From assembly GCA_965228475.1 (NCBI GenBank), contig OZ245817.1, positions 3,872,001-3,936,000 on the forward strand: a DNA stretch of 64,000 nucleotides, given 5' to 3'. The stretch is from Myxococcota bacterium (GTDB lineage: Bacteria > Myxococcota_A > UBA9160 > JAFDDA01). Below the pieces are notes generated by a model, which ran no database searches, had not been told where the DNA came from, and saw only the letters and a program-made list of their open reading frames with translations. Within the stretch, counting starts at the first letter, position 1. Each line of letters begins with the position of its first letter. The translations under genes were made by a program, and so were the position numbers. Positions 29,010 through 46,359 of the stretch are shown one piece after another.

Positions 29010-29023
29010 CGTACGATCGGATC

Positions 29024-29707
29024 ATGCTCGAGGAGTTCGCGCCCTCTCTCTATACGGCGGACGGCCCGACGGTGCCGTTCCTCGGCATTCCCTACCCGAC
29101 CCGCATGGCCGTTGCGAAGCTCGGCGATGGCAGCGCGTGGGTGTGGTCGCCGATCGCGTTGACGCCCGAGCTCGAGCGGGCGGTGGAGGCGATCGGGCCC
29201 GTTCGCCAGATCGTCTCGCCCAACAAGATCCACCACCTCTTCCTCGGGGAATGGACGGAGCGCTGGCCGGAAGCCCAGGTCCACGCGCCGCCGGGGCTCG
29301 CGAAGCGGAAGCCGGAGCTCCGCTTCGATGCAGAGCTCGGCGACGAACCGGCTCCCGCCTGGGCCTCGGAGATCGATCAGGTGATCTTCCACGGCTCGCT
29401 GGCCATGGAGGAGGTCGTCTTCTTCCACCGTGCATCGCGCACGGCGATCGTCTGCGATCTCGTCCAGCGCCACGACCCGGCCGGGCTCTCGGGCTGGAAG
29501 GGGATGCTGATGCGGCTCGACGGTCTCGTCGGGGACGCCGGCAGCACGCCGCGGGAGTGGCGTGCGAGCTTCCTCCGCCGCCGCCCGGCGCGGGCGGCCC
29601 GCGAGCGGCTCCTCGGCTGGCAGCCGGAGCGGCTCATCATCGCCCACGGCGCCTGCGCGCAGAGCGGCGCCACCGGCATCCTCACGCGCGCGCTCGCCTG
29701 GATCTAG
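29024..29707 (+). CDS. DUF4336 domain protein
   Basis: TRM.V.KL, WVWSP, SPNKIHHLF, EVVFFH, IIAHG. Confidence 0.85.
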   Translation: MLEEFAPSLYTADGPTVPFLGIPYPTRMAVAKLGDGSAWVWSPIALTPELERAVEAIGPVRQIVSPNKIHHLFLGEWTERWPEAQVHAPPGLAKRKPELRFDAELGDEPAPAWASEIDQVIFHGSLAMEEVVFFHRASRTAIVCDLVQRHDPAGLSGWKGMLMRLDGLVGDAGSTPREWRASFLRRRPARAARERLLGWQPERLIIAHGACAQSGATGILTRALAWI

Positions 29708-29822
29708 GTTCCAGCGAGCGGGGCGCATCCTCCCTCAGAACTTCCCGTTGACGCTCTTCCATTCCCCGGGCGGAGGTCGCAGTCCGCGATCCACCGCTCC
29801 GAAACGGGATAGAGTCAGCCGC

Positions 29823-30569
29823 ATGGTCTGGTCGGAAGCAGAGATCGAACGGTTCGTCGAGGAGGGGTTCCTGATCCTTCGAGACGCCTTCGCCCGCGAA
29901 GTGGCCGAAGAAGGGCGCGAGTTCATCTGGCAGAAGATGGGCCTCTCTCCGGACGCCCCGGCCGATTGGAGCGAACCCATCATCCACATCCAGGAGGGGT
30001 TCAGCTGCGCGCCGTTCGACCGCGTGATGAATCCACGCCTGGAAGCCGGCCTGTCCGAACTCATGGGCCCGGGCCGGGGCGTCCTTCACGGCTACCTCGG
30101 GTGGTGGCCCGTGCTCTTCCCGGGCTTCGAGGGCCCCGGAGGTTGGCACGTGGACGGCCACTTCCAACACCATCTGACGTCGCGGGAGCAGGGTCTCGTC
30201 ACCCTTCTGCTGTTCTCGGACATCGAACCCGGCGACGGCGGGACGGCGATCTGGCCGGGCTCCCACCACACGATCGCTCGCATGCTCGCCGAAGCGGAAC
30301 CGGACGGGCTCTCCCCCGAAGCGTTGAACGCGAACCTGCCGGAGGTGGATCTCGACCAGGTCGTCGAAGTCACGGGCAAGGCCGGCGACGTCGCCATGCT
30401 CCACCCGATGTTGATCCACGGGTTCAGCGCCAACCGCGGGCGCCGCGCCCGGTTCGCCTGCAACCCGCAGTTCCCGCTGAAAGACGCCTTGAAGATAGAT
30501 CGCCCGGACGGCGCCTACTCCCCGGTCGAGCGCGCGATCCGCGCCGCGCTCGGGCGAGGCTCCGACTAG
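29823..30569 (+). CDS. Phytanoyl-CoA dioxygenase family protein
   Basis: FVEEGFL, WHVDG, PGSH, GDV..LHP..IH. Confidence 0.85.
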   Translation: MVWSEAEIERFVEEGFLILRDAFAREVAEEGREFIWQKMGLSPDAPADWSEPIIHIQEGFSCAPFDRVMNPRLEAGLSELMGPGRGVLHGYLGWWPVLFPGFEGPGGWHVDGHFQHHLTSREQGLVTLLLFSDIEPGDGGTAIWPGSHHTIARMLAEAEPDGLSPEALNANLPEVDLDQVVEVTGKAGDVAMLHPMLIHGFSANRGRRARFACNPQFPLKDALKIDRPDGAYSPVERAIRAALGRGSD

Positions 30570-31039
30570 GCCCCCGCGGCGCTCCTGGCCAGGGCCAGCG
30601 CCGCGAGGCCGAACGCCGCGATGGCGAGCGCCGTACGCCCCCAGTGCCACCGCGCCCAGCGGCCGAGCTCCGCACCGACCGCTCCCGTCGGAATCGACGC
30701 CTCGGCGAAGCTCGCGTTGGCCTTCTGGAAATAGAGCGGGAAGCTCGCGAGCACCGCGAGCGTCAGGACCGTCGAGGCGAGGAAGAGACCCTGCCCCTCG
30801 AGACCGGCCAGCCAGCCCGAAACGGTCGCGACGACCACGAGCAGCGTGCTGGCGACCTCGAGCGGGCCGAAGAACTTGAGCAGCAGGCTCGCGTGATCGC
30901 GATACCACGAGAGGAACGCAGCGGGATCCTGGGCTCGCCACATCGGAACCAGAACACCTGCTTCCGCCAGAAGCGCCCCCGCGGAGAGGCCGAGCGCAAG
31001 AACGGCCAGAACCCCCGCGGCGAATGCGATCCACTCCAT
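30566..31039 (-). CDS. DUF1772/anthrone oxygenase-like membrane protein
   Basis: Four TM segments; 'RWARWHWGRT'. Confidence 0.7.
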   Translation of the reverse strand: MEWIAFAAGVLAVLALGLSAGALLAEAGVLVPMWRAQDPAAFLSWYRDHASLLLKFFGPLEVASTLLVVVATVSGWLAGLEGQGLFLASTVLTLAVLASFPLYFQKANASFAEASIPTGAVGAELGRWARWHWGRTALAIAAFGLAALALARSAAGA

Positions 31040-31078
31040 CTCGAGACTCCTATCGCCCCACCCGACGGCGCCGGCCGT

Positions 31079-31471
31079 TCAGGAGGGATCTCCCTCGAAC
31101 TGCTTCGCCCCCTCCGGAATCACGCACCAGGACGGCTTGCTCGCCACGTGCTCGTGGAAGCTGATCTCGACGTCGGCGCCCTCGTCGAAGCAGTTCACGG
31201 ACACGGGGAACATGCGCTCGCTCGAGGTGATCTCACCGAGGGCCGTTCCGCACGTGCCGCAGAAGCAGCGGACGTACCGAAAGGATGCCTCCGGCTGGTA
31301 CTCGACGATGCTCTCGCGCCCCTGCTCCAACGTGAACGCCTCCGCTTCGACCATGGCGAACGGGGTCGCGCCGACCTTACGGCATCGCGAGCAGTAGCAG
31401 GCGCCGACGAAGCGGGGTTCGGCCGAGATCGAGAAGCGGACTTCGCCGCAGCAGCAGCTCCCCTGGATCAT
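31079..31471 (-). CDS. GFA/CENP-V family protein
   Basis: GSCCCG, CYCSRCRK, FCGTCG. Confidence 0.88.
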   Translation of the reverse strand: MIQGSCCCGEVRFSISAEPRFVGACYCSRCRKVGATPFAMVEAEAFTLEQGRESIVEYQPEASFRYVRCFCGTCGTALGEITSSERMFPVSVNCFDEGADVEISFHEHVASKPSWCVIPEGAKQFEGDPS

Positions 31472-31487
31472 TCGAAATCCTCCCGGA

Positions 31488-31874
31488 TCAGCCGACGTCG
31501 CCGGGCAGGCTGGCGAGCACGACGACGTAGCCGTCGGGATCCCGCAGCCAGCACTCCCGGTGGCCCGCGTTGGCGTTGACGTGTGGTTCTTCGACGATCT
31601 CCGCCCGGAGGTCGCGCGCCCGGCCGACGGCCGCGTCGAACGCCTCGGTCTGGAACCAGAGCAATGCGCCGTTTCCGTAGGGCTCCCGCTCGGGGTCGCC
31701 CATGTGGGGGTGCGCCTCGGGCTCCCAGGCGTGGAGCTGCAGAACGATCTCGCCGCCGTGGAGGAGCCGTTCGTAGCCTCTGCCCCCGTGGCCGCTCGAG
31801 CAGCCGAGAACCCGCTGGTACCAGCGGCTGCTCGCTTCGACGTCGCGCACGGCGATGAGCGGTTGAGGACGCAC
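31488..31874 (-). CDS. VOC/glyoxalase family protein
   Basis: V.DVEAS.RWY..VLG, RDPDGY. Confidence 0.88.
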   Translation of the reverse strand: MRPQPLIAVRDVEASSRWYQRVLGCSSGHGGRGYERLLHGGEIVLQLHAWEPEAHPHMGDPEREPYGNGALLWFQTEAFDAAVGRARDLRAEIVEEPHVNANAGHRECWLRDPDGYVVVLASLPGDVG

Positions 31875-31941
31875 GCGAACCCTCCCGAACCGACCTTATC
31901 ACGTCGGGCGCTCCCATCCGGGGGATGCGAAGCTCTGCGGC

Positions 31942-32409
31942 ATGGAACCCCTGGTGATCCGCCTCGCCGAGCCGCCCGAGCTCGAGGCCGCGACGGAAGT
32001 CTGGGTGCGCTCTCGGTGGGACGCGGAACCCGCCCTCGAGGAGCGGATGGGGTACACGCGCGAGCAGAACCACGAGCACTTCGCGAACGTCGTCGCACGC
32101 GAGAACGCGGTCTGGCTCGCGCTCCGCGCTGGCCGGATCGTCGGGCTCATGGCCTACCGGGATGGCCTCGTCGACCAGCTCTTCGTCGAACCGCGCGACC
32201 AGCGGACGGGCGTCGGGCTCGCGCTCCTCGAAAGAGCGAAGGCGCTCTCGCCGAAAGGGCTGAAGCTCTACACCCACCAGAGCAACGTCCGCGCGCGCGC
32301 CTTCTACGAGAGCCAGGGCTTCGAAGCGATCGCGTTCGGAATCAGCCCGCCGCCCGAGAACGAGCCGGACGTCACCTATGCCTGGGCACCCGGCGCGCCG
32401 GCGCGTTAG
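31942..32409 (+). CDS. GNAT acetyltransferase
   Basis: LFVEP..QRTGVG, N.RA.AFYE..GF. Confidence 0.88.
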   Translation: MEPLVIRLAEPPELEAATEVWVRSRWDAEPALEERMGYTREQNHEHFANVVARENAVWLALRAGRIVGLMAYRDGLVDQLFVEPRDQRTGVGLALLERAKALSPKGLKLYTHQSNVRARAFYESQGFEAIAFGISPPPENEPDVTYAWAPGAPAR

Positions 32410-32693
32410 CGGGCGCTCGGCCCCGGCGAGCCGAAGCGCCGAGCGGCGCGCTCACGGGCCTTCGCGGCCTCGACTTCCCGGTTGCGCGGTGCGGCTTCGG
32501 TGACGAGGGAATCGAGCAGCTCGTGCGCCACCTCGGACACCGAGGCGATGGCCTTCTCGAAGGCGGCCTGGTTCGCCCGGGAGGGCCTGTTGAACCCGCT
32601 GAGCTTGCGGACGAACTGGAGCGATGCGGCGTGGATCTCGTCCTCGGTGGCCGGCGGATCGAAGTTGTAGAGCGTCTTGATGTTGCGGCACAT
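32406..32693 (-). CDS. DUF2277 family protein
   Basis: MCRNIKTLYNFDPPAT..EI.AASLQFVRK. Confidence 0.9.
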   Translation of the reverse strand: MCRNIKTLYNFDPPATEDEIHAASLQFVRKLSGFNRPSRANQAAFEKAIASVSEVAHELLDSLVTEAAPRNREVEAAKARERAARRFGSPGPSAR

Positions 32694-32721
32694 GGGGGCA
32701 CCTCGCGTGGCTTCGGCGATT

Positions 32722-33456
32722 CTACCGCTGGAGGATCAGGCACGTGTAGCCGTACTCGTCGCCGAAGGTCTCGTAGATCTCCCGTTCGAGCCGGCTCGCG
32801 GCGTAGATCTCGCGCTCGCCGTGCCGGGCGACGGCGTCGCGCAGCGAGGCCTCGAGGCCCGCGTAGTACGCGTGCCAGTCGCTCGAAGGCAGGCGGAACG
32901 AGCCGAGCTGGTCGTAGCCGACGCTTCGCGCAAGGTCGAAGCGGGTGGCTTCGTCGCGCATGTCCGGGTACTCCGCCGCGAAGAACCGGCGCGCCCGCTC
33001 GCTCGGCTCCTCGACGAACCACACGAGCTCGGTCGCCACGAGGCAGCCGCCGGGCCGCAGGAGGGGCCGCCACCGCCGCAGCGCGTTCTCGAAGCCGATC
33101 GAGTACGCGCTGCCCTCGGCCCACAGCAGATCGAACCCCGTGCCGAAGGAATCGACGTCCGCCATGTCGGCGGCGAGCGTCGTGATGCGGCTGGCCAGGC
33201 CGCGCGCCTCGGCCTGCGCCCGAAGCGTCTCGAGGAACGGCGGGTGGAGGTCGACGGCGGTGACGTGGGCGCCGGTCTCCTCGGCCAGGACGAGCGTCGA
33301 CCCTCCGGTGCCACAGCCCAGGTCGAGCACGCGCTCGATGCCAAGCGAGTCCGGCAACGAACGAAGCGCGCGCCGCGTGGTCTCGACGCTCCCCGGGCCC
33401 TGCCGCGGAGTGCTCTCGTACAGCTCGAAGAAGAGCGCCAGTTCGTCGGGCTTCAC
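32722..33456 (-). CDS. Class I SAM-dependent methyltransferase
   Basis: RQGPGS, LDLGCGTG, FDLLWAEG. Confidence 0.88.
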   Translation of the reverse strand: MKPDELALFFELYESTPRQGPGSVETTRRALRSLPDSLGIERVLDLGCGTGGSTLVLAEETGAHVTAVDLHPPFLETLRAQAEARGLASRITTLAADMADVDSFGTGFDLLWAEGSAYSIGFENALRRWRPLLRPGGCLVATELVWFVEEPSERARRFFAAEYPDMRDEATRFDLARSVGYDQLGSFRLPSSDWHAYYAGLEASLRDAVARHGEREIYAASRLEREIYETFGDEYGYTCLILQR

Positions 33457-33836
33457 GGCTTCCCCCTCAGGAGGCCGGAGCGGGCGGCGAGGCAGGCCAC
33501 ACCACAGGCCGCCGCCGCGACGATCAGCAACCGGGAGAGCGACCCATGGAACGTGTAGAGCGGGTCCGAGGACAGCGCGAAGTGGAGCACGGCATGAACG
33601 ATCAGGAAGAAAGCGACCCCCAGCCGCGTCGCGTTTCGGACGCCCTCCTTCGGCGCGTGGCTCATCCACAGGATCGCGAAGAAGAGCGGCACGTGGAGCC
33701 CGACGAACCACTGCGACGCGGCGTCGTCCGGCAGGCTCTTCAGCAAGGGCATCAACCGCCACTCCGAATGCGTGACCGCATCGAGCTCGTGCGTGAAGAG
33801 GCAGGCGAGGCCGAGGTAGTAGAGTGCGATCGCCAC
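33453..33836 (-). CDS. DUF6713-like membrane protein
   Basis: 'THELDAV...EWR', 'F..LHVPL', 'HAVLH'. Confidence 0.65.
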   Translation of the reverse strand: MAIALYYLGLACLFTHELDAVTHSEWRLMPLLKSLPDDAASQWFVGLHVPLFFAILWMSHAPKEGVRNATRLGVAFFLIVHAVLHFALSSDPLYTFHGSLSRLLIVAAAACGVACLAARSGLLRGKP

Positions 33837-33846
33837 GATGCGAACC

Positions 33847-33880
33847 CCCTGACGGGACCGGCCCTTGGTGGCGGCGCCGG
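33847..33880 (-). repeat. Possible eroded attC arm (R' side)
   Basis: CCCTGACGGGACCGGCCCTTGGTGGCGGCGCCG loosely resembles CCTAACGGATCAGGCCTTCAGCAGCGCCG of the intact sites. Confidence 0.3.
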
Positions 33881-33888
33881 GTGCGGCT

Positions 33889-34299
33889 TCACCGCTTCGT
33901 GTCGAGGACGCGAACGAGATGGCGGAACAGGCCCTTCGAATACCAGACCGATTTCACGCGGGCGAAGGCATCGAGCGCGGGGTCGTGCTCCTCCGGGATC
34001 TCCTGCTTCGGCAGGAAGACGCCCCGGCACTTGGTGCAGCGCAGCACCGAGAGCCCACCCACCTCGCCGGAGACCAGCGTGTCCGCCCGGCACTGGGGGC
34101 ACGCTGCGCAAGGCTCCGAGAGCTCCTTGAAGCCGAGGGCCGGAGCCTGGCCACCGGCGGAACGCGCCTGGGCCGAGCGGAACGCCGTCATCTCGCCTTC
34201 GTCGAACCAGATCCCCTCGCAGGACTCGCACTGGTCGAGGTAGACGCCGAGCGCCCGCACGGGCTTCAGGTGGTGGTCGGAGCAGGAAGGGCAGTCCAT
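33889..34299 (-). CDS. Double zf-TFIIB zinc-ribbon protein
   Basis: CPSC..CESCEGIWFD.GE; CPQC..CTKCRGVFL. Confidence 0.82.
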   Translation of the reverse strand: MDCPSCSDHHLKPVRALGVYLDQCESCEGIWFDEGEMTAFRSAQARSAGGQAPALGFKELSEPCAACPQCRADTLVSGEVGGLSVLRCTKCRGVFLPKQEIPEEHDPALDAFARVKSVWYSKGLFRHLVRVLDTKR

Positions 34300-34311
34300 C
34301 GGGTCGAAACT

Positions 34312-34445
34312 ACCTGGCGATGCGGGCCTTCGGCAAAGCTCCGAGCGCTGCCTCTCAGCGCTGGCCCCGCCGTGCCCGCTGCAAAATCCTACCACGCTGA
34401 TCTGAACCCGAGTACAGGGCGCCCGCCCTTTGCCTCGCCGCCCTG
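34312..34445 (-). repeat. Degenerate family-A attC remnant
   Basis: 'gggccttcggc..gcgctgcctctcagcgctg..aatcctaccacgc' aligns by eye with the 42282 and 44497 sites; right end approximate. Confidence 0.6.
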
Positions 34446-34453
34446 CCCGCGCG

Positions 34454-34666
34454 CTAGCGGGGCTGGAGCGGCGCTGCGGACGACGCGTGGGAGGTCAGGC
34501 AGTACCGGCCGAGGGTCGCGGCCGTGGTGACGCTGCCGACCGCTGCGAACACCGCCAGGAGCGCGATCGCCGCCGCGCGCATCGGCCACGGGAGCCGGCG
34601 GGGCCGCGCGGTGAACGAGCTCGGGTACTCGACGATCCCGACCGGGTTGACGCGAGGAAGTTCCAT
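34454..34666 (-). CDS. Small single-TM hypothetical protein
   Basis: 70-aa ORF with one hydrophobic helix. Confidence 0.45.
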   Translation of the reverse strand: MELPRVNPVGIVEYPSSFTARPRRLPWPMRAAAIALLAVFAAVGSVTTAATLGRYCLTSHASSAAPLQPR

Positions 34667-34736
34667 GGCAGTTGGATGCCCGAGGCCACGGCTCCGTTTC
34701 GCGGCGTCGAGCGGCCGGGGAACACGCGCTCGCCCT

Positions 34737-35207
34737 TCAGGGGCTCTCTTCAGTACGCGCGAGGGCGAGCCGCTCGTCGACCACCGCGGCGAATCCGGGG
34801 TCGAAGGCACCGCGCTGCCGCGTCCACCAGGACCGCGTGGCCGGCATCAGGAAGGCCTGGTCGATGTCCGAGAGGTACTTCTCGCCCATGAACGAATCCA
34901 CCTCACGGGCCAGGTAGCCGAGGTGGATCCGGTTGAAGAAGGCGAAGCACAGCATCCCGAAGTGTTCGCGATCGTCCTCGGTCATCTCATCGGGGGACTG
35001 CATCGCGCGGCGCCAAACCCGGTAGAGCTCCGGGTTGGTCTGCACCTGCTCGAAGATCCCCCGGATCCCGGCCACGTAGTTCTCGTGCAGCGTGAAGCGC
35101 ACCACGTGGCTGTTCTGACGGATCTGCACGGCCAGATAGACCAGCGACCCGATCACGCCGATCGCACCGGCCAGCTCGGCGAGGGCCCCCACTGCATCCC
35201 AGTTCAT
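34737..35207 (-). CDS. Hypothetical protein with N-terminal TM (MNWDA.GA..E family)
   Basis: MNWDAVGALAELAGAIGVIGSLVYLAVQIRQN; TGGTAGGAT motif 7 nt upstream. Confidence 0.7.
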   Translation of the reverse strand: MNWDAVGALAELAGAIGVIGSLVYLAVQIRQNSHVVRFTLHENYVAGIRGIFEQVQTNPELYRVWRRAMQSPDEMTEDDREHFGMLCFAFFNRIHLGYLAREVDSFMGEKYLSDIDQAFLMPATRSWWTRQRGAFDPGFAAVVDERLALARTEESP

Positions 35208-35244
35208 GCGGAGGATCCTACCACGGCGTTTCGGGCGACCGGCG

Positions 35245-35622
35245 TCAGGCGGGGGCCGAGAAGCACAGGATGTACCCGTCCGGGTCCTCGACATAGAAGT
35301 CGCGGCGGCCCCAGGGCCGGACCTCGACGCGGCGCAGGATCCGCGCGCCTCGCCCGACGAACTCGTCGCACAGCGCGTCGACGCCGGTTGTGTCGAAGTA
35401 GACGTCGAGATGCTCGTGCTCCCTCCGATGCTCCCGGTCGGCGGTGAGCTTCCGCGCCTGCTTCAGATGGACCGTCCCGCCCTCTCGCGTCACGCTCGCG
35501 TAGAACTCTTCGTAGACGAAATCCACCGAGAACCCGAGCACATCCTCGTAGAAGCGCAGCGATCGGCCGAGGTCATCGACGAGGAGCTGGGCTGCCGCGG
35601 TAGTGATCCTCGGATCAGACAT
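35245..35622 (-). CDS. VOC/glyoxalase family protein
   Basis: RSLRFYEDVLGF, PWGRRDFYVEDPDGY. Confidence 0.88.
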   Translation of the reverse strand: MSDPRITTAAAQLLVDDLGRSLRFYEDVLGFSVDFVYEEFYASVTREGGTVHLKQARKLTADREHRREHEHLDVYFDTTGVDALCDEFVGRGARILRRVEVRPWGRRDFYVEDPDGYILCFSAPA

Positions 35623-35648
35623 CTGGCATCGACTCCGTCAGAGCAACG

Positions 35649-36386
35649 CTAACTCGCGCCACGGTAGACCGAGATCTCCACCGCATCTGGCAGATCGCTG
35701 TACTCGATGCGGGCGGTGCGGTGCTCGGAATCGTAGCGCCCGCAGGTGCGGACGTACTCGAGGTACGGCTCGGCGCCGAACATCTCGCCGACGTTGTCGG
35801 CCACCACGATGCTCCCCTCGCGCAGGAGCCCGCGCTCCTCGAGGAGCCGGAGGTCCTTCTCGTAGAGATCCTTCCAGTGGTCGAGGAAGACGAGATCGAA
35901 GGTGCCCTCGAGCGTTCCGATGACCTTCGACGAGGACCCTTCGAGGATCTCGACCCGGCCGGCGTATCCCGCGTAGGCGACGTTCGCGCGAGAAGCACGG
36001 ACCGAATCCGCGTTCACCTCGATCGAAGTGAGCCGGCCCTCCGGCCCGAGCTCGCCGGCGATCATGATTGCGGAGTAGCCGCAGTACGCCCCGAGCTCGA
36101 GCACCCGCGCGTTCGCCGGAAGGCGCCCGATCAGCTCCGCCATGAGCGGCCCCTTCTCCGGCCCGACATTCATGAGGAACCGCCGCTCACGAGCGAACCG
36201 ATCCATCGCCCGCAGCACGCCCTCCGGGTCGCCCTCCTCCGCGTTCTCCTCGACGAACCGGCGAACCTGCTCGACCCGCGGCGGCGCGCCGGTCACGAGA
36301 TCCGCCACGAACTCATATGCGCGGCGGGCCGTCCACGGGAGGGCTTTCGGGGAAAGGAAACGGGCGAGGTTCAGAAGCTGTGCCAT
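35649..36386 (-). CDS. Catechol O-methyltransferase-like protein
   Basis: MNVGPEKG, LELGAYCGYS, FLDHWK, VADNV. Confidence 0.88.
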   Translation of the reverse strand: MAQLLNLARFLSPKALPWTARRAYEFVADLVTGAPPRVEQVRRFVEENAEEGDPEGVLRAMDRFARERRFLMNVGPEKGPLMAELIGRLPANARVLELGAYCGYSAIMIAGELGPEGRLTSIEVNADSVRASRANVAYAGYAGRVEILEGSSSKVIGTLEGTFDLVFLDHWKDLYEKDLRLLEERGLLREGSIVVADNVGEMFGAEPYLEYVRTCGRYDSEHRTARIEYSDLPDAVEISVYRGAS

Positions 36387-38011
36387 GGGTGCACCTCGCT
36401 GGCTGCAAGAGCGCGGTCGGGTCAGGAAGACACGGAAACCCTACCACGACACGCAGGATCCAAGTCGACGTCGCCCGCTGTTGCATTCCTCGCCGGCCAC
36501 CTTCGGAAGAGGGCGTCTTCCCGGGAGCTTCGTGTGATAGTTTGATCAACCGTGCGGCACCTCATCGCAAGCCTCGTGTGCCTCTTCCTCGTACCCGACC
36601 TCGGGCAGAACAGGCCCGTGTGGCCCTCAGCCGAAGCGGCCCCGGCATCGACTCCGAACGCTCGTGAGGCTCCCGAGGTATTGGAGCTCCGAGCCGGCGT
36701 AGACGCCGGCGACCCCTCTGCAATGTTGAAGCTCGCGCTGCATCTACTGAAGGGGAACCCATCGCAGCAGGCCGAGGGATTCTCTCTTCTCGAAGCCGCA
36801 GCGCAATCTGGATTGGCGCCGGCCCAGCTTCTGCTGGGAGAGCTGCACATCCTGGGGCGTGCGCCGAGCGCGGAGCCCGAGCAGGCGTTCCGCTGGATGC
36901 GAAGGGCCGCCGATCAGGGCCTCGTCGAGGCCGAGTTCCAGATGGGCCAGATGTACTACCAGGGCTTCGGAACCTCGCAGGACCGCGCCGCCTCGGTCGA
37001 GTGGTATCGGAAGGCCGCCGCGCGCGGCCATGCTGGAGCGACGAATGCTCTCGGCGTGCTCCTATCCACCGACGAGGTATTCATCAAGGATCGGACAGAG
37101 GCCGCACGCTTGTACAGAGTCGCGGCCGAGTCCGGGGATGCCGTCGGCCAGTTCAACCTGGCGAAGCGGCTCGCCGACGGCGACGGCGTGAAGAAGGACC
37201 CTGCGCGCGCCACCTACTGGTTTCACCAGGCGGCTCAGCGGGGCCATGTCGCCGCCCAGTACGACCTGGGCCTCCGCTACCTCGACGGGATTGGAACGAC
37301 CCAAGATGTCGAGGAGGGTCGGTCTTGGCTCGAGCGCGCCGGCGACGCGGGCTTCGGGCCGGCGTATCGCGCCATCGCATACCGACTTCTGGCGTCACCA
37401 GCGACCCGCGCGAGCGCGGCCGAGTGGTTCGAACGCGGGGCCGAAGCGGGCGACGCACACTCGCAGATCGCCGTCGTCGAAGCACGGATCCGGGGAGAGA
37501 TCGAGCCTGAAGACCCCGCCGACGATCTACGGAAGATCTTGGCCCTTGCCGATGCGGGCGACCTCTCCGCCATGATCACGATGTCCATGGCCCACTACAA
37601 AGGCTACGGCGTCACCCAGGACCCACTGTCAGCATTCTCTTGGGCGCAGCGCGCAGCACTCGGTGGCCTCGCCCGCGGAGAGTCGATGCTTGGGATGTAC
37701 TACGGGAAGGGAATTGGCGTCCAAGCCGATCCGAAGAAGGCAGTCGAGTGGTACCGCAAGGCCGCTGCCCAGGGGGAGCCCAACGCCCAGTACTCACTTG
37801 GGGTTCACCACCTTCTCGGGAAACACGTCCGCAAGAACCCCAAGAGAGGCATCGCGTTGCTGGAGGCGGCAGCGAAGCAAGGCAACGCCGAGGCGGCCGC
37901 GGTGCTGGAGAAGCTGAGGCGGCGCCAGCGCTCCGGCGCCGCACGCTAAGGCCGGTTCTCCGCTAGCAGAGTCGGAACTTCAAGAGAAACGGGCGAGGTT
38001 CAGGAGCTGTG
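36357..38011. repeat. 26-bp direct repeat pair (36357-36382 and 37986-38011) bracketing the Sel1 gene
   Basis: GAAACGGGCGAGGTTCAG(A/G)AGCTGTG, 25/26 identical. Confidence 0.85.
36552..37949 (+). CDS. Exported Sel1-like repeat protein
   Basis: Repeated W..KAA.QG...AQ..LG..Y..G.G units; N-terminal signal. Confidence 0.9.
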   Translation: MRHLIASLVCLFLVPDLGQNRPVWPSAEAAPASTPNAREAPEVLELRAGVDAGDPSAMLKLALHLLKGNPSQQAEGFSLLEAAAQSGLAPAQLLLGELHILGRAPSAEPEQAFRWMRRAADQGLVEAEFQMGQMYYQGFGTSQDRAASVEWYRKAAARGHAGATNALGVLLSTDEVFIKDRTEAARLYRVAAESGDAVGQFNLAKRLADGDGVKKDPARATYWFHQAAQRGHVAAQYDLGLRYLDGIGTTQDVEEGRSWLERAGDAGFGPAYRAIAYRLLASPATRASAAEWFERGAEAGDAHSQIAVVEARIRGEIEPEDPADDLRKILALADAGDLSAMITMSMAHYKGYGVTQDPLSAFSWAQRAALGGLARGESMLGMYYGKGIGVQADPKKAVEWYRKAAAQGEPNAQYSLGVHHLLGKHVRKNPKRGIALLEAAAKQGNAEAAAVLEKLRRRQRSGAAR

Positions 38012-38042
38012 TCGAGGCTTCACGCTCTGCCTTCGGAGCAGG

Positions 38043-38504
38043 TTAGACACCGTAGTAGCCCAGGAGGAGACCGTTGAGCCAGCGGCCGAACAGGAAGCCC
38101 ACGGCCACCAAGCCGAGATTGAGCAACGCGTAGCTCGCGCGCGCCCACCCGGGCGGCACGGCGCGGGCCGATACCAGGGTCGCGAGGGCGAAGAAGAACC
38201 ATGCCCCGGTGCAGACGAGAAGCGGCTTCCCGAGAAGAAACATCAGAGGCAGGTCGTGGAAGACCAGACCAGAGGAGAGAAAGGTGATCACGACGGCCAG
38301 CGGCCGATTCTCGCGGCCGCCGAGCGTCCGATAGAGACGATGAAGCACGAATCCGGCGAGAGGACTCCACGTGCGCCAGAAGTTGTGGAACCCCGGCTCG
38401 AACCAACAGTCGACGAACATGCGCCGGATCACCCGAAGAGGAGGCATCGAGGCGGGGTAGCCCCGAGCCTCGAGGTATTCCTGGTAGGACGGCGCGGAGG
38501 TCAT
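38043..38504 (-). CDS. MBOAT-like small membrane protein (cassette-like)
   Basis: 'FHNFWRTWS', 'TFLSSGLVFHD'; stop lies in an R''-like GTCTAAC. Confidence 0.55.
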   Translation of the reverse strand: MTSAPSYQEYLEARGYPASMPPLRVIRRMFVDCWFEPGFHNFWRTWSPLAGFVLHRLYRTLGGRENRPLAVVITFLSSGLVFHDLPLMFLLGKPLLVCTGAWFFFALATLVSARAVPPGWARASYALLNLGLVAVGFLFGRWLNGLLLGYYGV

Positions 38505-38530
38505 CGAGAACTCGCTCGGCTCGGCGGCAG

Positions 38531-38893
38531 CTAGTGAGCGGCCGAGACTTCGTCCAGATAGAAGACGTTCCCGTCCGGATCGGCGAAGAGCGCCAGGTAC
38601 CCGCCCCACGGCTGACGGGTAGGCGGCATCGGAAAGGCAACGCCGGCCGACGAGAGACGTTCGAACTCGGCATCGAGGTCAGCGACCGCGAACCCGACGC
38701 CGGTGTGGCGACCCACCCAATCCGCCTGCTCCGCCCCCGCCACCGCCAGCCCCAGGTGCACGGGCCCCGCAGAAAGAGAGGCGTAACCGTGCCCCGTATC
38801 CGAGTGGGCAACCCGCAGGCCGAGCTTCGACTCGTAGAACCGGAGCGCCCGGTCGAGATCCGAGACGAAGACGTTGACGTAGGCGATCTTCAT
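38531..38893 (-). CDS. VOC/glyoxalase family protein
   Basis: VSDLDRALRFYESKLG, PWGG....FADPDGN; SD AGGAG. Confidence 0.88.
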   Translation of the reverse strand: MKIAYVNVFVSDLDRALRFYESKLGLRVAHSDTGHGYASLSAGPVHLGLAVAGAEQADWVGRHTGVGFAVADLDAEFERLSSAGVAFPMPPTRQPWGGYLALFADPDGNVFYLDEVSAAH

Positions 38894-38917
38894 GTCCGGC
38901 TCCTGTGATCTGCACCA

Positions 38918-39007
38918 CCAGCGCCGCGCCACTTTGTCCAACGCCAGAACTCTACCACCCGGCGTTCGGGCACGACGCCTGGCCCCTGCTGATAGCCATT
39001 GCTAGGC
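38918..39007 (-). repeat. Partial family-A attC (R'' arm and loop kept, R' arm lost)
   Basis: acgccagaactctaccac...cctgctgatagccattgctaggc resembles the 42350-42415 segment. Confidence 0.7.
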
Positions 39008-39307
39008 AGCCGGACTCTCCGGCTCCGAACCCGCGAAACGACGAACCTGGCGAAGAACCCAGCGACCATCGGAAATGAGGTAGCGACCCAAGAAGAAGAG
39101 CAAGGCGCACTTCACCGCGTTGAATGCGAGGGACGCAAGCATCTGGGAGAGTGGAGTGACCCCAGGGTGACTCTCCGGAGATGCCACAGCGGCATAGGCG
39201 ATGCTGGGCAACCACGCGACGGCGTTGACCGCAGAAAACGCAGCCTGGAGCCAGGCGTAGAGGCCCAGGACTCGTATCGCGACCTCGAGATAGTCATTGC
39301 GAGTCAA
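39002..39307 (-). CDS. Small membrane protein (cassette)
   Basis: Two hydrophobic helices; stop TAG inside R''; TTG start inferred. Confidence 0.55.
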   Translation of the reverse strand: MTRNDYLEVAIRVLGLYAWLQAAFSAVNAVAWLPSIAYAAVASPESHPGVTPLSQMLASLAFNAVKCALLFFLGRYLISDGRWVLRQVRRFAGSEPESPAA

Positions 39308-39410
39308 TGGATCTTCCCGCCGGGCCGTCTTCGGCTTGCTGCAATCCACCGCTGCGCCACCGAGACGCGCCAACAGAATGGTATCACGGCGCAACGGAAC
39401 CCATGCGATC

Positions 39411-39935
39411 TCAGCGACGGAGCCTGAAGTGCCCCTCCCGGAGGCCCGACTCTGCGGCACGCAGCACCTCCTCTTCGCTTCGACCAAGTGTGCTGATGAC
39501 ATGCGACTCGTACTCGCCCAGCTCCGCGAAGGCGGCGACCGTCGGCCGCACTCGAGCACTCGCACCGACCCCCTGGCGCTCTCGAACCCGACGTAGCGCC
39601 TCTGCCTCAGGGACGCGGAGCACCAGGTATGACGCGTCGATATCAGGGGGTAGCTCCGCCATGACTACGGGGAGAAACCACGGGCCGAAGATGCCGTCCA
39701 GCACGACCAGATACCCACCCTCGAGAAATGCACTTGCCGCCCTCGCGGTCGCGCGGACGATCGTAGTGTTCTGGGCGTGAGATTCGGGCTTCGTTGGCTC
39801 GATGAAATGAGCTGGGAAGCCATAGAACGTGTCGCCAGTGAGATGCAGTCCTTGCGGGTGGGCCTTTGAAATCGATGCGGAGAGTGTCGTCTTGCCGGCG
39901 CCGGGGCAGCCCGACACGATGATGAGGGAAGCCAT
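39411..39935 (-). CDS. P-loop kinase/AAA_33-like protein
   Basis: Walker A GCPGAGKT; VVLDG. Confidence 0.8.
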   Translation of the reverse strand: MASLIIVSGCPGAGKTTLSASISKAHPQGLHLTGDTFYGFPAHFIEPTKPESHAQNTTIVRATARAASAFLEGGYLVVLDGIFGPWFLPVVMAELPPDIDASYLVLRVPEAEALRRVRERQGVGASARVRPTVAAFAELGEYESHVISTLGRSEEEVLRAAESGLREGHFRLRR

Positions 39936-40024
39936 TCGTACCTCGGGTCTGGAGTACGGGTCAGGTCGAGCGAGATGAAGGACCTGGCTTCCTAGTTCAT
40001 TGTCGGCTCTCGGTTCGCTTCGTC

Positions 40025-40099
40025 ACCCAAGCGGGAATCCAGAAGTCTACCAAGCAGGAGTGCAGACGCGGTGGTCGTCAGCTGCAACCCTTGTCAGGC
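40025..40099 (-). repeat. Partial family-B attC (R'' arm and loop kept)
   Basis: ccagaagtctacca...gtcagctgcaacccttgtcaggcggc resembles 45804-45867. Confidence 0.7.
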
Positions 40100-40612
40100 G
40101 GCAGGCCCCTGAGAGCGCGCCTCGACCAGGATCGCGACGAACGCGTATCCGGCCATCAGAAGGAGGAATACCAAATTGAGGAGGTAGGAAAAGAACAGCC
40201 ACGGCGAGAAGAAGCCTGCGACGGTGAGGAACTGAGCGAGAACCAGGGAGATTCCGATGACGTGTACAGCCATGAGCGGCCCCGACCGGCCGATCTGGCG
40301 CTCGCCTCGCAGGTTGACGCGCCAGCGCGCCCGAGAGTGGGCGACGATGATGGCGAGATGATAGGAGCCCAGGAGCAGGCCCGAGACGCGCCATGCGTGC
40401 GTCGGCTCCAAGTGACTCGCACGCGCAAGGTCAGGGACGAAACCAAAGACGACAACCCCCAGGCTGCATCCCAGAAGTGCGATGAGCGCCGGAGCGTCGT
40501 CCGGCTGCCAGGCTCCGTTCTCGCGCCCTCCGAGCACCATGACGACACCGGTGAATCCGGCGAACGCGATGGCGACCTCGGCCAAAGAATGGAGGATGTC
40601 CTGATGCTCCAG
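40094..40612 (-). CDS. Multi-TM hypothetical protein (cassette), probable CTG start
   Basis: 'SLAEVAIAFAGFTGVV'; AGGAG SD 8 nt before an in-frame CTG. Confidence 0.7.
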   Translation of the reverse strand: MEHQDILHSLAEVAIAFAGFTGVVMVLGGRENGAWQPDDAPALIALLGCSLGVVVFGFVPDLARASHLEPTHAWRVSGLLLGSYHLAIIVAHSRARWRVNLRGERQIGRSGPLMAVHVIGISLVLAQFLTVAGFFSPWLFFSYLLNLVFLLLMAGYAFVAILVEARSQGPAA

Positions 40613-40627
40613 AATCCCGCTCCTGCC

Positions 40628-40761
40628 GCCCAACGGATCAGGCCTTCAGCAGCGCCGAGGGTGCTGACACTCAGCGCTGCACCACCGTGGCCGATGCCAG
40701 AATCCTACCACGCCGCATTCGAGCCCAAGCCCTTGGCGTCCGCTGCAAGGCATCGTTAGGC
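40628..40761 (-). repeat. attC site, family A (134 bp)
   Basis: Minus strand GCCTAAC..TGCAGCGGAC...GCTGCTGAAGGC..GTTGGGC; imperfect palindrome between co-oriented ORFs. Confidence 0.88.
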
Positions 40762-40780
40762 GGCGGGCGTTGACCACGAA

Positions 40781-41545: not shown

Positions 41546-41559
41546 CGATGTTCCCTGCC

Positions 41560-41693
41560 GCCTCACGGATCAGGCCGCCAGCGGCGCCGAGGGGGCTGAC
41601 TCTCAGCGCTGAACCACCGCGACCGATGCCGAAATCCTACCACGCCGCATCCGATCAGGAGCCCTTGGCGTCCGCTGTAAGGCCTTGCTAGGC
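41560..41693 (-). repeat. attC site, family A (134 bp)
   Basis: GCCTAGC...GTGAGGC ends; internal homology to the other family-A sites. Confidence 0.85.
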
Positions 41694-42275
41694 GGCTCCG
41701 CCTGCGAGAGGCTCTCCGCATTGAGAGCACCGTTCATCTTCCAGGGTGGCGCTGGCCGCGCACGCTGGGCAAATCTGCCAGCCGGTCGGAAACGGGAGGC
41801 CGCAGTCACTGCACTCAGTTGCTCCCGTCTCGGCGCTCGTGCCACAAGCGGGGCAGTGATCGAGTTCGGTTCCAGTCTGGGCGGACTCGCCTGGAGGACT
41901 TGGCATTCGCGATTCTTCGTGCGCCTCGACCAAACGTAGAGCAGCCTCGACAGACGACTCCTCGACATAGAGCGCCAGGTTGTAACCGTGACCGGCGCTC
42001 CCTTTTACCGCACCACGAGCGTCAATCGAGGACCCCGGCGGATCGGTGTCGATCTTGCTTGAGATGCCCCTCTCCTGGAGGAATATTGCTTGCTGTTCGA
42101 GCTGCCAGGGACCTCCGTACGAGACGATCTCCAGGTTACTCAGGTACGCGAAACCGGCTGGGCTCGGCGGCGGACTCCAGGGTTCGAGCGTGACATGACA
42201 ATCCGAGCAGGTCTCGACATCAAGCCTGTACTCGATGTGGCACGAGGGGCAGAGTTTCGCGAGTACGAAGTCCAA
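41688..42275 (-). CDS. Zinc-ribbon / DUF2007-like protein (cassette)
   Basis: CPSC..CSDC at N-terminus, four CxxC at C-terminus, central 'LQERGI...LYV....EAA'. Confidence 0.72.
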   Translation of the reverse strand: MDFVLAKLCPSCHIEYRLDVETCSDCHVTLEPWSPPPSPAGFAYLSNLEIVSYGGPWQLEQQAIFLQERGISSKIDTDPPGSSIDARGAVKGSAGHGYNLALYVEESSVEAALRLVEAHEESRMPSPPGESAQTGTELDHCPACGTSAETGATECSDCGLPFPTGWQICPACAASATLEDERCSQCGEPLAGGAA

Positions 42276-42281
42276 GAAGCC

Positions 42282-42415
42282 GCCTAACGGATCAGGCCTT
42301 CAGCAGCGCCGAGGGCGCTGACTCTCAACGCCGCACTACCGAGACCGACGCCAGAATCCTACCACGCAGCATTTTGGGGATGAGCCTTGGCGCCTGCTGA
42401 TAGGCCTTGCTAGGC
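42282..42415 (-). repeat. attC site, family A (134 bp)
   Basis: GCCTAGC...GTTAGGC; 80 bp identical to the 44497 site. Confidence 0.88.
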
Positions 42416-42419
42416 GGCA

Positions 42420-42888
42420 CTAGTCAATCTTGTTGATCGGGAGGTCGACTCTCGGATCGATGGTCAGGTTGATGATGCCTTCCGCCACCTTCCGAAACCC
42501 TTCAGATGTCTTGCGTAGCTGCGAGGTTTCAAGGACTTCCCTGTCCACCCGCAAACCGCGCTTGGCCTTTGCGCTGCTCTTGGTTCTTAGCGCGCCCTCA
42601 ATATCTGCCGGTGCCCAGATCGAATGGAGCAGCTTGTTTCGCTCCATCTCAGCCTTGGTGATCGCAGTTCGAAGAGACTCGATTTCCTGGATGTACGATT
42701 CGTCGTTGGTGGATTCTTTGAGCACCGAGAGAAGAAATTTCGTTGGAATCTCTGCTGAAACGATTTCGCCGACCGTCGTATCTGCTGACAGTGCTGCTTG
42801 CAGTGGAACAGTGAGACTCAACTCAAGGACCCAACGCCTTGAGGAAATCGTCGTCGAGGTAGTGTTCAAAGAATGTCCTTCGCGCCAA
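42420..42888 (-). pseudogene. HEPN-like gene, apparently frameshifted near 42830
   Basis: RNKLLH (Rx4H) in the C-terminal frame; N-terminal 'EHYLDDDFLKALG' lies in another frame that stops soon after. Confidence 0.5.
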
Positions 42889-42918: not shown

Positions 42919-43773
42919 TCAGATACTGACCTTGTCCGACTTGGATCTATTGCAGTCGAAACATGTGAGTCGGATGTTCTGCTCCTCTGAACTGCCGCCT
43001 TTGGAGATCGGAATCTCGTGATCGAATTCGACTTCGTTGTCTCGCAGGTGCTTGCCACACCGTTGACATGTGTAGTTGTCACGCCGTACGACCCGAATCT
43101 TTGTCTTGAAGGAGATGTATCGACCTGTTCGGCGTAGTTCGGAGGTTTCGGTCATCTGCTCAGCGTTGAATACGGCAGGGCATAGGTGACCAAAGACGTT
43201 GCACGACGCGTCGATGAGCCAACCTGGAATCTCTTCCGGGTAGTCAGCAGCATCGAACTCGTCGATCTCCCGCTGAAAGTGCTCTCTCTGTTCGTCAGTG
43301 ATGGGGCGAAGGTTGCCAACGATCCCTGTCTTGAGGGCCCGCTTCATGTCTTCGTTGACAGCAACCGCAGCCTCGCGCGTCAGATCATCACCGATGTCCC
43401 GGCCAAGACGCTGCATCATTGTGATCTCGCCAGTCGGGTCAGGCTCGTAGTCCCCTGGATTGAAGTCGGCGACGCAATCCTCGAAGTCCTGCCTAGTCTG
43501 ATCATCGAGAGGTTCGCCATGTCCGGCCATGCCGCTGGCGAGACAACCCTTGATGTACTCCAAGTGATCAACTGCATCCTCGCGTGTCTGCGGAAGCAGG
43601 GGAGATTGCTCGACCAGGGGACCGTAGGGACAGTACTTCAGCTCCCAACACGGCTTGCACACACGGTTGGCTCGCTGCTCCCACCACGATGCGAAATCAG
43701 CATCGGACAGCGTGTCCGGGAGCGCGAGTGCTCTTCGAACGGCAGGATGGAGTCGCTGTTCTGCAGACGCCAC
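42919..43773 (-). CDS. HNH endonuclease with Cys-rich N-terminal domain (cassette)
   Basis: RDNYTCQRCG..FDHEIPISKGG....N....CFDCN. Confidence 0.9.
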   Translation of the reverse strand: MASAEQRLHPAVRRALALPDTLSDADFASWWEQRANRVCKPCWELKYCPYGPLVEQSPLLPQTREDAVDHLEYIKGCLASGMAGHGEPLDDQTRQDFEDCVADFNPGDYEPDPTGEITMMQRLGRDIGDDLTREAAVAVNEDMKRALKTGIVGNLRPITDEQREHFQREIDEFDAADYPEEIPGWLIDASCNVFGHLCPAVFNAEQMTETSELRRTGRYISFKTKIRVVRRDNYTCQRCGKHLRDNEVEFDHEIPISKGGSSEEQNIRLTCFDCNRSKSDKVSI

Positions 43774-43784
43774 GATTCGATGCC

Positions 43785-43915
43785 GCCTAGCGGACTAGGG
43801 GTTTCGCTGCGGCCAACGGCCGCCGAGGTCGCAGCGCCACCCGAGTAACGACGCTAGGATTCTACCAAGTCAGTTGGAGGCTGCGTTGGTCGGCAGCTCT
43901 AACCCCGTGTCATCC
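43785..43915 (-). repeat. attC site, family B (131 bp), degenerate R''
   Basis: Shares gctgcggccaacggccgccgaggtcgcagc with the 45736 site. Confidence 0.8.
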
Positions 43916-43926
43916 GGCATCGCTCC

Positions 43927-44493
43927 CTACCTACCGCGGCGCTTCTTTCTCGCTGTCTGCTTGCGCCCCCGTTTGTGTTGGCGCTCGTAAAACAGAGTGC
44001 CTGCTTCAAAATCTCGAATGTTGCCAGGCTGGATGTCTACTCGCTTCTTGCGTTCATTGAACTGGAGCTGTGAGCCCCCTGCTCGGATTAACAGAGTCTC
44101 GATCTCTCGCTCATGAGTCTTCTCTGCGACAATGTAGAAGGAGAAGTACTGGAGTTCCGAGGAGTGAGCCTTCTTGCGGGAAGCCAGACGCCTGAACACG
44201 TTGCCGCGGCCAACGTATCGAGCGGAACCCATCGAGTCGTGAGCTACGTAGACGCCGTTTGGTGTGATCCCTTCGCTGGCAACGTCCTTTCTGACATCAT
44301 CGAGCGCATCGAATGGCAGCTTCTCTGCGACAAGAGTGAAGAGTGGCTCGATCTTTCGTGGTCGCCCACGCCCACGGGTGAGCTGACCAGCCTTAACGGA
44401 CCAGTGCGAGTTACTCCAGACGGTGGAGTAGACGGTCTTGGTGGCCTGAGGCTTCGATCGCCGCTTCTTTCGTACTGCCATGCAACCGCTCAT
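43927..44493 (-). CDS. GIY-YIG nuclease family protein (cassette)
   Basis: GVY...RYVG.G....RL, EREIETLLI, N. Confidence 0.82.
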   Translation of the reverse strand: MSGCMAVRKKRRSKPQATKTVYSTVWSNSHWSVKAGQLTRGRGRPRKIEPLFTLVAEKLPFDALDDVRKDVASEGITPNGVYVAHDSMGSARYVGRGNVFRRLASRKKAHSSELQYFSFYIVAEKTHEREIETLLIRAGGSQLQFNERKKRVDIQPGNIRDFEAGTLFYERQHKRGRKQTARKKRRGR

Positions 44494-44496
44494 GCC

Positions 44497-44630
44497 GCCT
44501 ATCGGATCAGGCCTTCAGCAGCGCCGAGGGCGCTGACTCTCAACGCCGCACTACCGAGACCGACGCCAGAATCCTACCACGCTGCCCTTGGACAGAAGCC
44601 CTCGGCGGCTGCTGATAGGCCTTGTTGGGC
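44497..44630 (-). repeat. attC site, family A (134 bp)
   Basis: GCCCAAC...GATAGGC. Confidence 0.88.
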
Positions 44631-44642
44631 AGCTGCACGGGC

Positions 44643-44912
44643 CTACTCGTCAGAATCCAGCTCCCCGGTCGCAAGAAAGGTGAGCTCGCGATCTGAGAAC
44701 TCGGACTCTTGAAGCAGCCAACGGGCTCGGTGAGCCGACTCCGCACTAACCGAGGGCCGCACCTTTGCGGGAACAGCTGCGACAGATTGGGTGACATAAA
44801 CGGATGAGGAGACTCCGCCCGAGCGGAGCATGCCCTGGACGACCTCGGCAGTACCAATCGAGTCGAACTCTAGAACGAACTCACCATCCTGGATGGAGTC
44901 GCCGTCGCTCAT
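44643..44912 (-). CDS. DUF2007-like small protein (cassette)
   Basis: 'AEVVQGMLRSGGV...V....AHRARWLL'. Confidence 0.65.
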   Translation of the reverse strand: MSDGDSIQDGEFVLEFDSIGTAEVVQGMLRSGGVSSSVYVTQSVAAVPAKVRPSVSAESAHRARWLLQESEFSDRELTFLATGELDSDE

Positions 44913-44915
44913 GCC

Positions 44916-45022
44916 GCCTAGCGGATTCGGCGCTCAGCGGCCGCCTCGCCGCAGGCGGAGGCTTGGAGCGCCCTAGGTTGATGCCAGGATTGTACCAGGG
45001 TCGGATGGAAGCCTGGGTAGGC
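44916..45022 (-). repeat. Shorter, degenerate attC site (107 bp)
   Basis: GCCTACC...GCCGCTGAGCGCCGAATCCGCTAGGC; lies between co-oriented ORFs. Confidence 0.7.
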
Positions 45023-45027
45023 GGCGC

Positions 45028-45728: not shown

Positions 45729-45735
45729 CGGCGCC

Positions 45736-45864: not shown

Positions 45865-45873
45865 GGCCCACTC

Positions 45874-46344: not shown

Positions 46345-46359
46345 CTGCTCGCTTGGGCC

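Follow-up and report, generated by a model that had tools for sequence, protein, structure and literature searches.

We asked what becomes of the recombination sites and the genes at the old end of an integron cassette array, a question raised by a row of attC sites in a 64,000-nucleotide stretch of a Myxococcota genome (contig OZ245817.1; C1:3872001-3936000, hereafter the window, whose own numbering is used unless C1 is given). The host genome, G000, is one contig of 5.0 Mb with 70.5% GC. A first reading of the window from its letters, the original prediction, had proposed that attC sites lose their recombination arms with distance from an attI-like end but keep an embedded promoter, and that old cassettes are being fixed as ordinary genes. 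Our comparisons support selective retention of the motif TGnTAnnnT during arm decay in two arrays of G000, and the pattern was replicated in G090, a complete genome from another family. The locus is probably the ageing end of a second, integrase-less array, in which the arms have decayed and the motif, which we take to be an extended -10 promoter of the sigma-70 type, has been kept, likely because it works as a promoter for the next gene; old cassettes would then likely become fixed, host-like genes.

The sole integron integrase of the genome (TIGR02249, 422.6 bits, no stops; C1:4384365-4385318) lies ~466 kb from the window array, and the main array of 39 attC matches (4361.9-4383.8 kb) runs in the same direction as intI. 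The window array is on the minus strand and comprises an attI homologue and seven full-length attC sites, from 45733 down to 40625:

46357-46417, minus strand: attI homologue at the array head, no intI beside it; crossover core GCT where GTT is expected
45733-45870, minus strand: full-length attC of a divergent loop type, both cores canonical; motif TGGTAGGTT, hairpin z -3.5
44913-45042, minus strand: short divergent attC, cores altered; motif TGGTACAAT
44494-44635, minus strand: full-length attC of canonical type, R' core GAT; motif TGGTAGGAT
43782-43922, minus strand: full-length divergent attC, both cores altered; motif TGGTAGAAT
42279-42420, minus strand: full-length attC of canonical type, R'' core AGC; motif TGGTAGGAT
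41557-41698, minus strand: full-length attC of canonical type, both cores altered; R'' is the TAG stop of the upstream gene
40625-40766, minus strand: last attC with both cores canonical; motif TGGTAGGAT

Six decayed or candidate sites lie further out:

40012-40103, minus strand: half-site without the right arm, left arm and loop being preserved; R'' serves as a TGA stop, and motif TGGTAGACT lies at 40044-40052
39338-39406, minus strand: loop-only remnant; motif TGATACCAT at 39378-39386
38914-39010, minus strand: half-site without the right arm, left arm and loop being preserved; R'' serves as a TAG stop, and motif TGGTAGAGT at 38949-38957 stands 55 nt ahead of a VOC gene
36380-36500, minus strand: degenerate attC in which L''/L' pairing can still be traced; motif TGGTAGGGT at 36438-36446, with an O-methyltransferase gene starting 51 nt further on
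35215-35250, minus strand: probable compact remnant, the weakest site; TGGTAGGAT 7 nt before the next ATG
34324-34430, minus strand: degenerate, near-full-length attC without R boxes; motif TGGTAGGAT at 34386-34394

Alignments and folds identified the full-length sites as those of an integron array, that is, imperfect palindromes of the form R''-L''-loop-L'-R' with RYYYAAC and GTTRRRY cores, set between single genes. Both cores are canonical in 35 of the 39 main-array sites versus 2 of the 7 in the window, where an AAC or GTT core is non-canonical in 5/7 full-length sites, so that decay begins already in the proximal array. Fold z-scores ranged from -1.0 to -3.5 for intact sites and from +1.4 to -0.7 for remnants, and a covariance model gave 39-124 bits for full-length sites and 28, 18, 16 and 12 bits for four remnants. 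Searching the window against Rfam returned no family at gathering score.

The hexamers on which the original prediction rested are present on the minus strand (TAGACT at 40044, TACCAT at 39378, TAGAGT at 38949, TAGGGT at 36438, and TAGGAT at 35215 and 34386), and both half-sites, at 40 kb and 39 kb, have lost the right arm. It had further taken five of these places, and possibly 36438, to be attC remnants beyond the 9-bp motif. This was addressed by masking the 9-mer and scoring the flanks only, with training attC from the main array and from relatives, none from the window, and with the other 361 TGnTAnnnT sites of the host genome as controls; the figures given are the controls that reach the remnant's score. 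Five of the six scored: none of the 361 controls matched the remnants at 40012-40103, 39378, 38914-39010 and 34324-34430 (the last on each flank), and for 36438 the count was 0/361 on the left flank and 2/361 with both flanks summed. For 35215 the flanks were not significant, 77/361 controls being as good. A profile built from the seven full-length window sites found 40012-40103 (E 1.6e-8; 29 bits with the motif masked), 38914-39010 (E 1.2e-7), 34324-34430 (E 0.013; 16 bits in the covariance model) and, weakly, 39347-39402 (E 2.6; 7 bits masked), and missed 35215 and 36438. The latter reached 6.6 bits unmasked, was recovered neither by the masked profile nor by the covariance model, and folds with z +0.5. 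Profiles of half-sites from which the motif was left out had too little sensitivity for short remnants, among which they recovered only 40060-40103.

The site at 35215 is a probable attC remnant, judged by its letters. Its 14-mer CGTGGTAGGAT[CT][CT]T is the attC core and has 0 occurrences outside the two arrays and their tails, although the 9-mer alone is present in 6/361 controls. It has an R''-like stop upstream and scored 6.9 bits (E 2) in the covariance model. No fuller attC at this place in a close relative was found among 80 metagenome loci (best full-length identity 37%). A further candidate, TGATAAGGT at 31893, was rejected, with 340/361 controls as good, and neither the flank test nor the masked scan detected an attC remnant beyond 34.3 kb. 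The proposed gradient away from attI thus exists in coarse form and is not monotonic: 34324-34430 is more complete than 35215 yet lies further out.

Decay is also lopsided. Among the invariant positions of decayed G000 sites (gaps counted as losses), 26/48 were kept in R'', 39/56 in L'', 50/64 in the motif, 26/88 in L' and 2/56 in R'. The left side is the more eroded in G090, with 25/80, 103/192, 70/80, 132/176 and 52/96 kept in the same order.

We then compared motif retention with a neutral model, in which the rate for each site was its own retention of invariant A/T and G/C; attC copies inside one genome are not independent of each other. Detection was repeated with the motif columns of the profiles set to background. 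The decayed G000 set comprised eight sites, five from the window or the main array and three added from the masked scan; seven sites that are full-length but have altered cores did not count as decayed and were excluded. The motif was kept in 7/8 of these sites versus 1.4 expected neutrally (P 1e-5). In G090, where 49 intact sites give way to a 19-kb stretch with 15 decayed ones and one more decayed site ends a second array, it was kept in 13/16 versus 2.4 expected (P 2.5e-9). Exact R'' and R' cores had become rare in the same sites (0/8 and 0/8 in G000; 1/16 and 2/16 in G090). Motif A/T positions were also kept more often than equally central loop A/T positions, at 28/32 versus 41/63 in G000 (p 0.028) and 55/64 versus 57/88 in G090 (p 0.005). 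The background of the masked scan consisted of 19 matches of 6-12.5 bits, with the motif in 0/19. Outside the motif, T>C and A>G were among the commonest changes; the A/T-rich box therefore persists against the drift. Whether the cores were lost faster than the arms is a matter on which the data are only suggestive (global alignment, core A/T 24/53 versus arm A/T 106/175, p 0.058). Taken together, the sequences support the claim that the motif survives while the arms erode, and array structure and selective retention are both well supported.

The motif was further compared with the promoter signal of the host. Almost all attC sites have TGnTAnnnT on the gene strand, oriented towards the cassette that follows. 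Among 4394 host genes, called with a codon model of our own, TAnnnT stands 6-9 nt before the start in 438 placements, versus about 15-20 per position elsewhere. In a consensus from 430 such leaderless-type genes outside the arrays, position -2 is G in 72%; there is no signal further upstream, and no -35 element was found. The attC motif fits this consensus, with T-A---T invariant and the middle variable, and therefore matches the host's ordinary (predicted) promoter; 376 of its 419 genomic occurrences fall between genes. The hexamer at 35215 does stand 7 nt from the ATG. The original prediction had noted this as the spacing of a leaderless promoter; as a mark of attC origin we rejected it, because the spacing is generic in the host and by itself no sign of such an origin.

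Intact sites are nearly uniform in this respect. The motif was found in 36/37 intact sites of G000 and in 54/54 of G090, there as 15 different 9-mers in which only T-G-n-T-A-n-n-n-T is fixed. In G129, 11/12 sites read GGCTACGnT; in that genome, in G169 and in G013 the motif was tallied only. Over five genomes, 114 intact sites carried TGnTAnnnT in 101 cases, GnTAnnnT in 10, TAnnnT in 1 and none of these in 2. In other attC types (L024, L047, L048, L051, L052), TTGACA or TCGACA precedes a TA-box near the right arm by 8-10 nt, which does not suit a -35/-10 pair.

The window array has its own attI, which is 46/61 identical to the intI-adjacent one (C1:4384174-4384234), and the genome has only these two attI matches. 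There is no complete integron here, since no intI adjoins attI and array, and msrA abuts the window attI. With seven full-length attC sites and no intI in the window, the locus is instead a cluster of attC sites without a nearby intI (CALIN). Window array and main integron have attC types in common, and the cassette at 44643-44912 is 83% identical to a main-array cassette. Given its own attI, one intI ~466 kb off and the shared cassette, we regard the array as a CALIN with its own attI, as read from the sequence, that is probably served in trans by the distant IntI.

Second arrays away from intI are common in this order (G090 C1:109232-114104; G169 C24:81231-90509; G129 C3 and C11; same-genus G001 C79, C150, C240 and C256). 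TAGACT directly upstream of both attI (window region 46410-46445, and the main attI) is a candidate -10 box of the cassette promoter, Pc, and the 8-mer GACTGAAC occurs twice in the window region. The intI gene lies upstream of attI, in the transcription direction of the array, in G000, G090 and G169, and G013 has the usual divergent layout. In G000 this co-orientation is as in Treponema (PMC3607928).

Loss of recombination may have come about through stop codons. TAA is the stop in 137 of the 4394 host genes. In intact G090 sites, R'' reads TAA in 48/49 and serves as stop codon in 28, and in decayed main-array sites of that genome R'' is an in-frame TGA or TAG stop in 8/15. The same is seen at 41557, 40012 and 38914 and in three main-array sites of G000. 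Because R'' doubles as a stop codon, a silent change from TAA to TGA or TAG would disable the site. With canonical core pairs in 2/7 sites and a GCT core in attI, the window array looks largely frozen.

We next consider the genes of the decaying part, which had been described as small, mostly minus-strand, cassette-type and close to host composition:

36552-37949, plus strand: Sel1-repeat gene, inverted, with different sequence at this place in a related strain; a TGATAGTTT box of its own lies 8 nt upstream of the start
35649-36386, minus strand: O-methyltransferase (Methyltransf_3); no attC-flanked homologue among 24 loci
35245-35622, minus strand: VOC/glyoxalase gene, ends in R''-like GCCTGAC; family occurs as cassettes
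34737-35207, minus strand: membrane-type protein of 156 amino acids, no Pfam match; common cassette family
34307-34315, minus strand: another -10-type box, TAGTTT, apart from the remnant and 7 nt ahead of the ATG of the zinc-ribbon gene
33889-34299, minus strand: zinc-ribbon gene (Zn_ribbon_TFIIB); 2/6 homologues inside attC arrays
29024-33836, no strand given: outer tail with DUF4336, PhyH, anthrone oxygenase-like, GFA, VOC, GNAT, DUF2277, methyltransferase and DUF6713 genes; host-like G+C content at third codon positions (GC3)

The description was borne out: 11 of the 12 genes at 30.5-36.4 kb are on the minus strand, Pfam types include VOC, GFA, methyltransferase and zinc ribbon, and GC3 is 0.85-0.94 against a host median of 0.925. 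GC3 is 0.60-0.73 in the intact part, 0.70-0.83 among the half-sites and 0.85-0.94 beyond 36.4 kb. Plotted against distance from attI, as had been suggested, it rises (rho 0.84, n=28); the main tail gave 0.59 (n=23) and the intact main array 0.03 (n=38, gene-less cassettes included through the longest open reading frame per cassette). In the same-genus genome G001 both flanks are syntenic and enclose 5.5 kb of other genes with no attC match, namely four genes read from their translations as LemA-like, membrane protein, amino-acid permease and asparagine synthase. The 29-46 kb block is absent at this locus, so that its genes are not syntenic core, as judged by this one same-genus genome.

The claim that old cassettes have been fixed could be followed at the level of families. 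In 29 loci of relatives, members of the 34737 family have attC on both sides in 4 and a degenerate attC upstream in another 4; in metagenomes, attC lies next to the gene in 17/80 loci, three of these being probably one sequence. Of the VOC 35245 homologues, 4/80 loci are directly attC-flanked, and the GFA and VOC 38531 families were found once each as cassettes in relatives' arrays. A cassette origin of the family thus stands for the 34737 gene, zinc ribbon, VOC and GFA. It does not for the two methyltransferases, although 70%-identical copies of the one at 32722 lie beyond the array ends of G013 and G169. The DUF6713, PhyH, anthrone oxygenase-like and 70-amino-acid genes had no match in relatives' fetched arrays, no wider search having been made. 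Several outer-tail families recur in array tails of relatives; as no remnant lies past 34.3 kb, the outer tail is ex-cassette by association only.

A similar tail is seen in the main integron (C1:4343000-4362000): it contains paralogues of the window tail genes, and the remnants at 4360598, 4359439 and 4358213 are significant. The tail gene at 4354638, which has a leaderless-type box, shares 37-39% identity with an intact cassette; four outer motifs of this tail were not significant in the flank test.

Several results count against promoter retention on the way from cassette to host gene. Half of the decayed G000 sites (4/8) score 7-14 bits when masked, in or near the background with its maximum of 12.5, and the flanks at 35215 gave no significant signal. 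One decayed half-site of the main array lacks the motif, with a different TGGTATTAT after the break point, as do two intact or near-intact divergent main-array sites. Nor is the motif universal, since GnTAnnnT is absent from 21/30 intact G151 sites and from the G022 consensus. In a global alignment the excess was not significant (29/38 versus 106/175, p 0.09); with the motif masked, this alignment misplaced gaps into the motif columns and is unreliable for the motif. The zinc-ribbon gene has its own -10 box at 34307, which reads TAGCAT in a low-depth contig of a related strain with T-A---T kept, and the remnant therefore need not be its promoter. Finally, neither methyltransferase had attC within about 1.5 kb in any of 24 loci each.

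The methyltransferases also favour the strongest alternative, which we consider possible though rather doubtful: that the former array reached only to about 34.3 kb, and that the outer tail is a general hot spot, in which accessory genes have gathered by means other than the integron and are served by ordinary promoters of the host. The rise in GC would then owe more to a mixture of gene sources, or to preferential retention of host-like genes, than to ageing in place. This reading is in keeping with the lack of remnants beyond 34.3 kb, with the frequency of TAnnnT at 6-9 nt in the host, with the other gene content that a related strain has inside the tail, and with the plus-strand position of 4 of the 19 genes between 29 and 38.9 kb. 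Against it, remnants lie on both sides of the O-methyltransferase and VOC genes, the same families recur in the array tails of G001, G006, G013, G090, G129 and G169, and GC3 climbs stepwise with attC decay in both arrays. This alternative would narrow how far the ageing array extends and leaves selective retention standing.

It is improbable that the decay is real but the motif is a binding site for some other protein, or a structural signal useful after recombination has ended. The promoter role is predicted from sequence, and in intact sites the motif lies 76-95 nt before the next start, so that a transcript would pass through the right arm. Nevertheless, the motif fits a -10 consensus derived independently from other genes, differs between sites only at positions that are also variable in -10 boxes, always lies on the gene strand, and persists when the hairpin no longer folds. 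Very improbable, and largely refuted, is an artefact of motif-led discovery, of profile bias to the middle of the site or of foreign attC types with different loops, because even though the sites were first found via the motif and some remnants resemble divergent attC types or score near background, detection with the motif columns at background left the excess over equally central loop A/T significant, and foreign functional attC keep their cores where the decayed sites have lost them.

We return to the ageing end of a trans-served array, for which the following course of events is probable. The array starts at a true attI without intI; by analogy with integron biology, IntI acting in trans would have added cassettes there and moved older ones outward. 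The motif, on the gene strand of nearly every attC, matches the host -10 consensus, which has no -35 signal; it may drive the downstream gene independently of Pc. The cores are then lost, often, where R'' is also the stop codon, by silent changes from TAA to the host-preferred TGA or TAG that would block excision. The arms erode with a G/C bias, and here the right arm was deleted, yet A/T bases within the motif persist much more often than neutral decay would allow. Codon usage nears that of the host, possibly through ageing, and the cassette would finish as an ordinary gene under a promoter of host type, in some cases a leaderless one.

A wider proposal, to which we lean only slightly, is an order-wide class of integron with a promoter built into attC, so that each cassette is expressible anywhere. 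Its arrays would be conveyor belts on which silent stop changes and drift end recombination, selection keeps the promoter and genes become chromosomal; much of the small accessory gene content of these bacteria would be ex-cassette, with promoters derived from recombination sites. If attC promoters work and outlast recombination, distal cassettes would be exposed to selection and have a direct route to permanent genes. Arrays would then let the domestication of genes be read as a time series that begins with intact cassettes and ends with host-like genes, the stabilisation and expression of captured genes would become testable, and attC-based annotation would underestimate the integron-derived share of a genome.

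Parts of this picture are already known, as far as the accessible text of the following sources goes. CALINs were proposed to be intermediates on the way from the acquisition of genes to their stabilisation (Cury et al. 2016, PMC4889954), and the window array resembles them in lacking a nearby intI while IntI is encoded elsewhere in the genome. It differs in having its own attI and, at each attC, a predicted promoter, whereas CALIN cassettes are regarded there as separated from Pc; that text describes no graded or selective decay. The array shares with the Vibrio cholerae superintegron long runs of near-identical attC, low-GC cassettes of unknown function and gene-less cassettes (Richard et al. 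2022, PMC8946536; Blanco et al. 2024, PMC11551772). In the standard model, however, cassettes are mostly promoterless and silent in distal positions (PMC8946536) and the array is isolated from the genome (PMC11551772), while here, unlike in sedentary chromosomal integrons, distal cassettes appear equipped to be expressed and pass gradually into host-like genes. Isolated promoters located at or in attC are known from DAT722 (Michael and Labbate 2010, PMC2945992), as are transcription start sites inside the attC of the gene-less cassette F2 (Blanco et al. 2024, PMC11014356). Transcription can thus start in or across attC; those are isolated, experimentally supported cases, whereas the box described here is fixed in an attC family across several families of one order and is predicted. 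Partial or total loss of attC fuses cassettes in class 1 integrons and Tn1331 (review, PMC8876359), similarly locking genes together permanently, but there the promoter comes from Pc or the gene sequence, whereas here the truncated attC keeps a predicted one. Integron inactivation and CALINs, and not selective attC decay, are the subject of the available parts of a Xanthomonas survey (10.1101/2025.06.18.660453), a Treponema survey (PMC3607928) and a further review (PMC8618304). A full-text literature search, with most subscription journals outside its range, returned no report of array-wide attC promoters outliving recombination or of selective attC decay.

Sequencing runs offered some further observations. 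A contig of run X1 equals 29000-40653 without a difference and is possibly the source. A depth-3 contig of a related strain (run X4) is longer by about 1.1 kb near 34.7 kb and has a different stretch, again of about 1.1 kb, where the window has the Sel1 segment. A minor contig of run X2 (depth 20 of about 250) links attI (46372) to an attC-like place (42407), the letters between being unread, and may be a variant with another first cassette. The proximal cassettes at 42919-45728 include an HNH endonuclease and a HEPN-like protein, possible defence genes, and in the main-array region C1:4368300-4376700 several cassettes without a convincing open reading frame form paralogous groups. The same small gene families are also clustered in G022 (C9:1125000-1185000), about 580 kb away from the integron of that genome, together with two oppositely oriented partial attC sites. 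Finally, cumulative GC skew of the whole host genome has its extremes near 5.0 and 2.34 Mb, and both arrays would therefore be co-oriented with replication.

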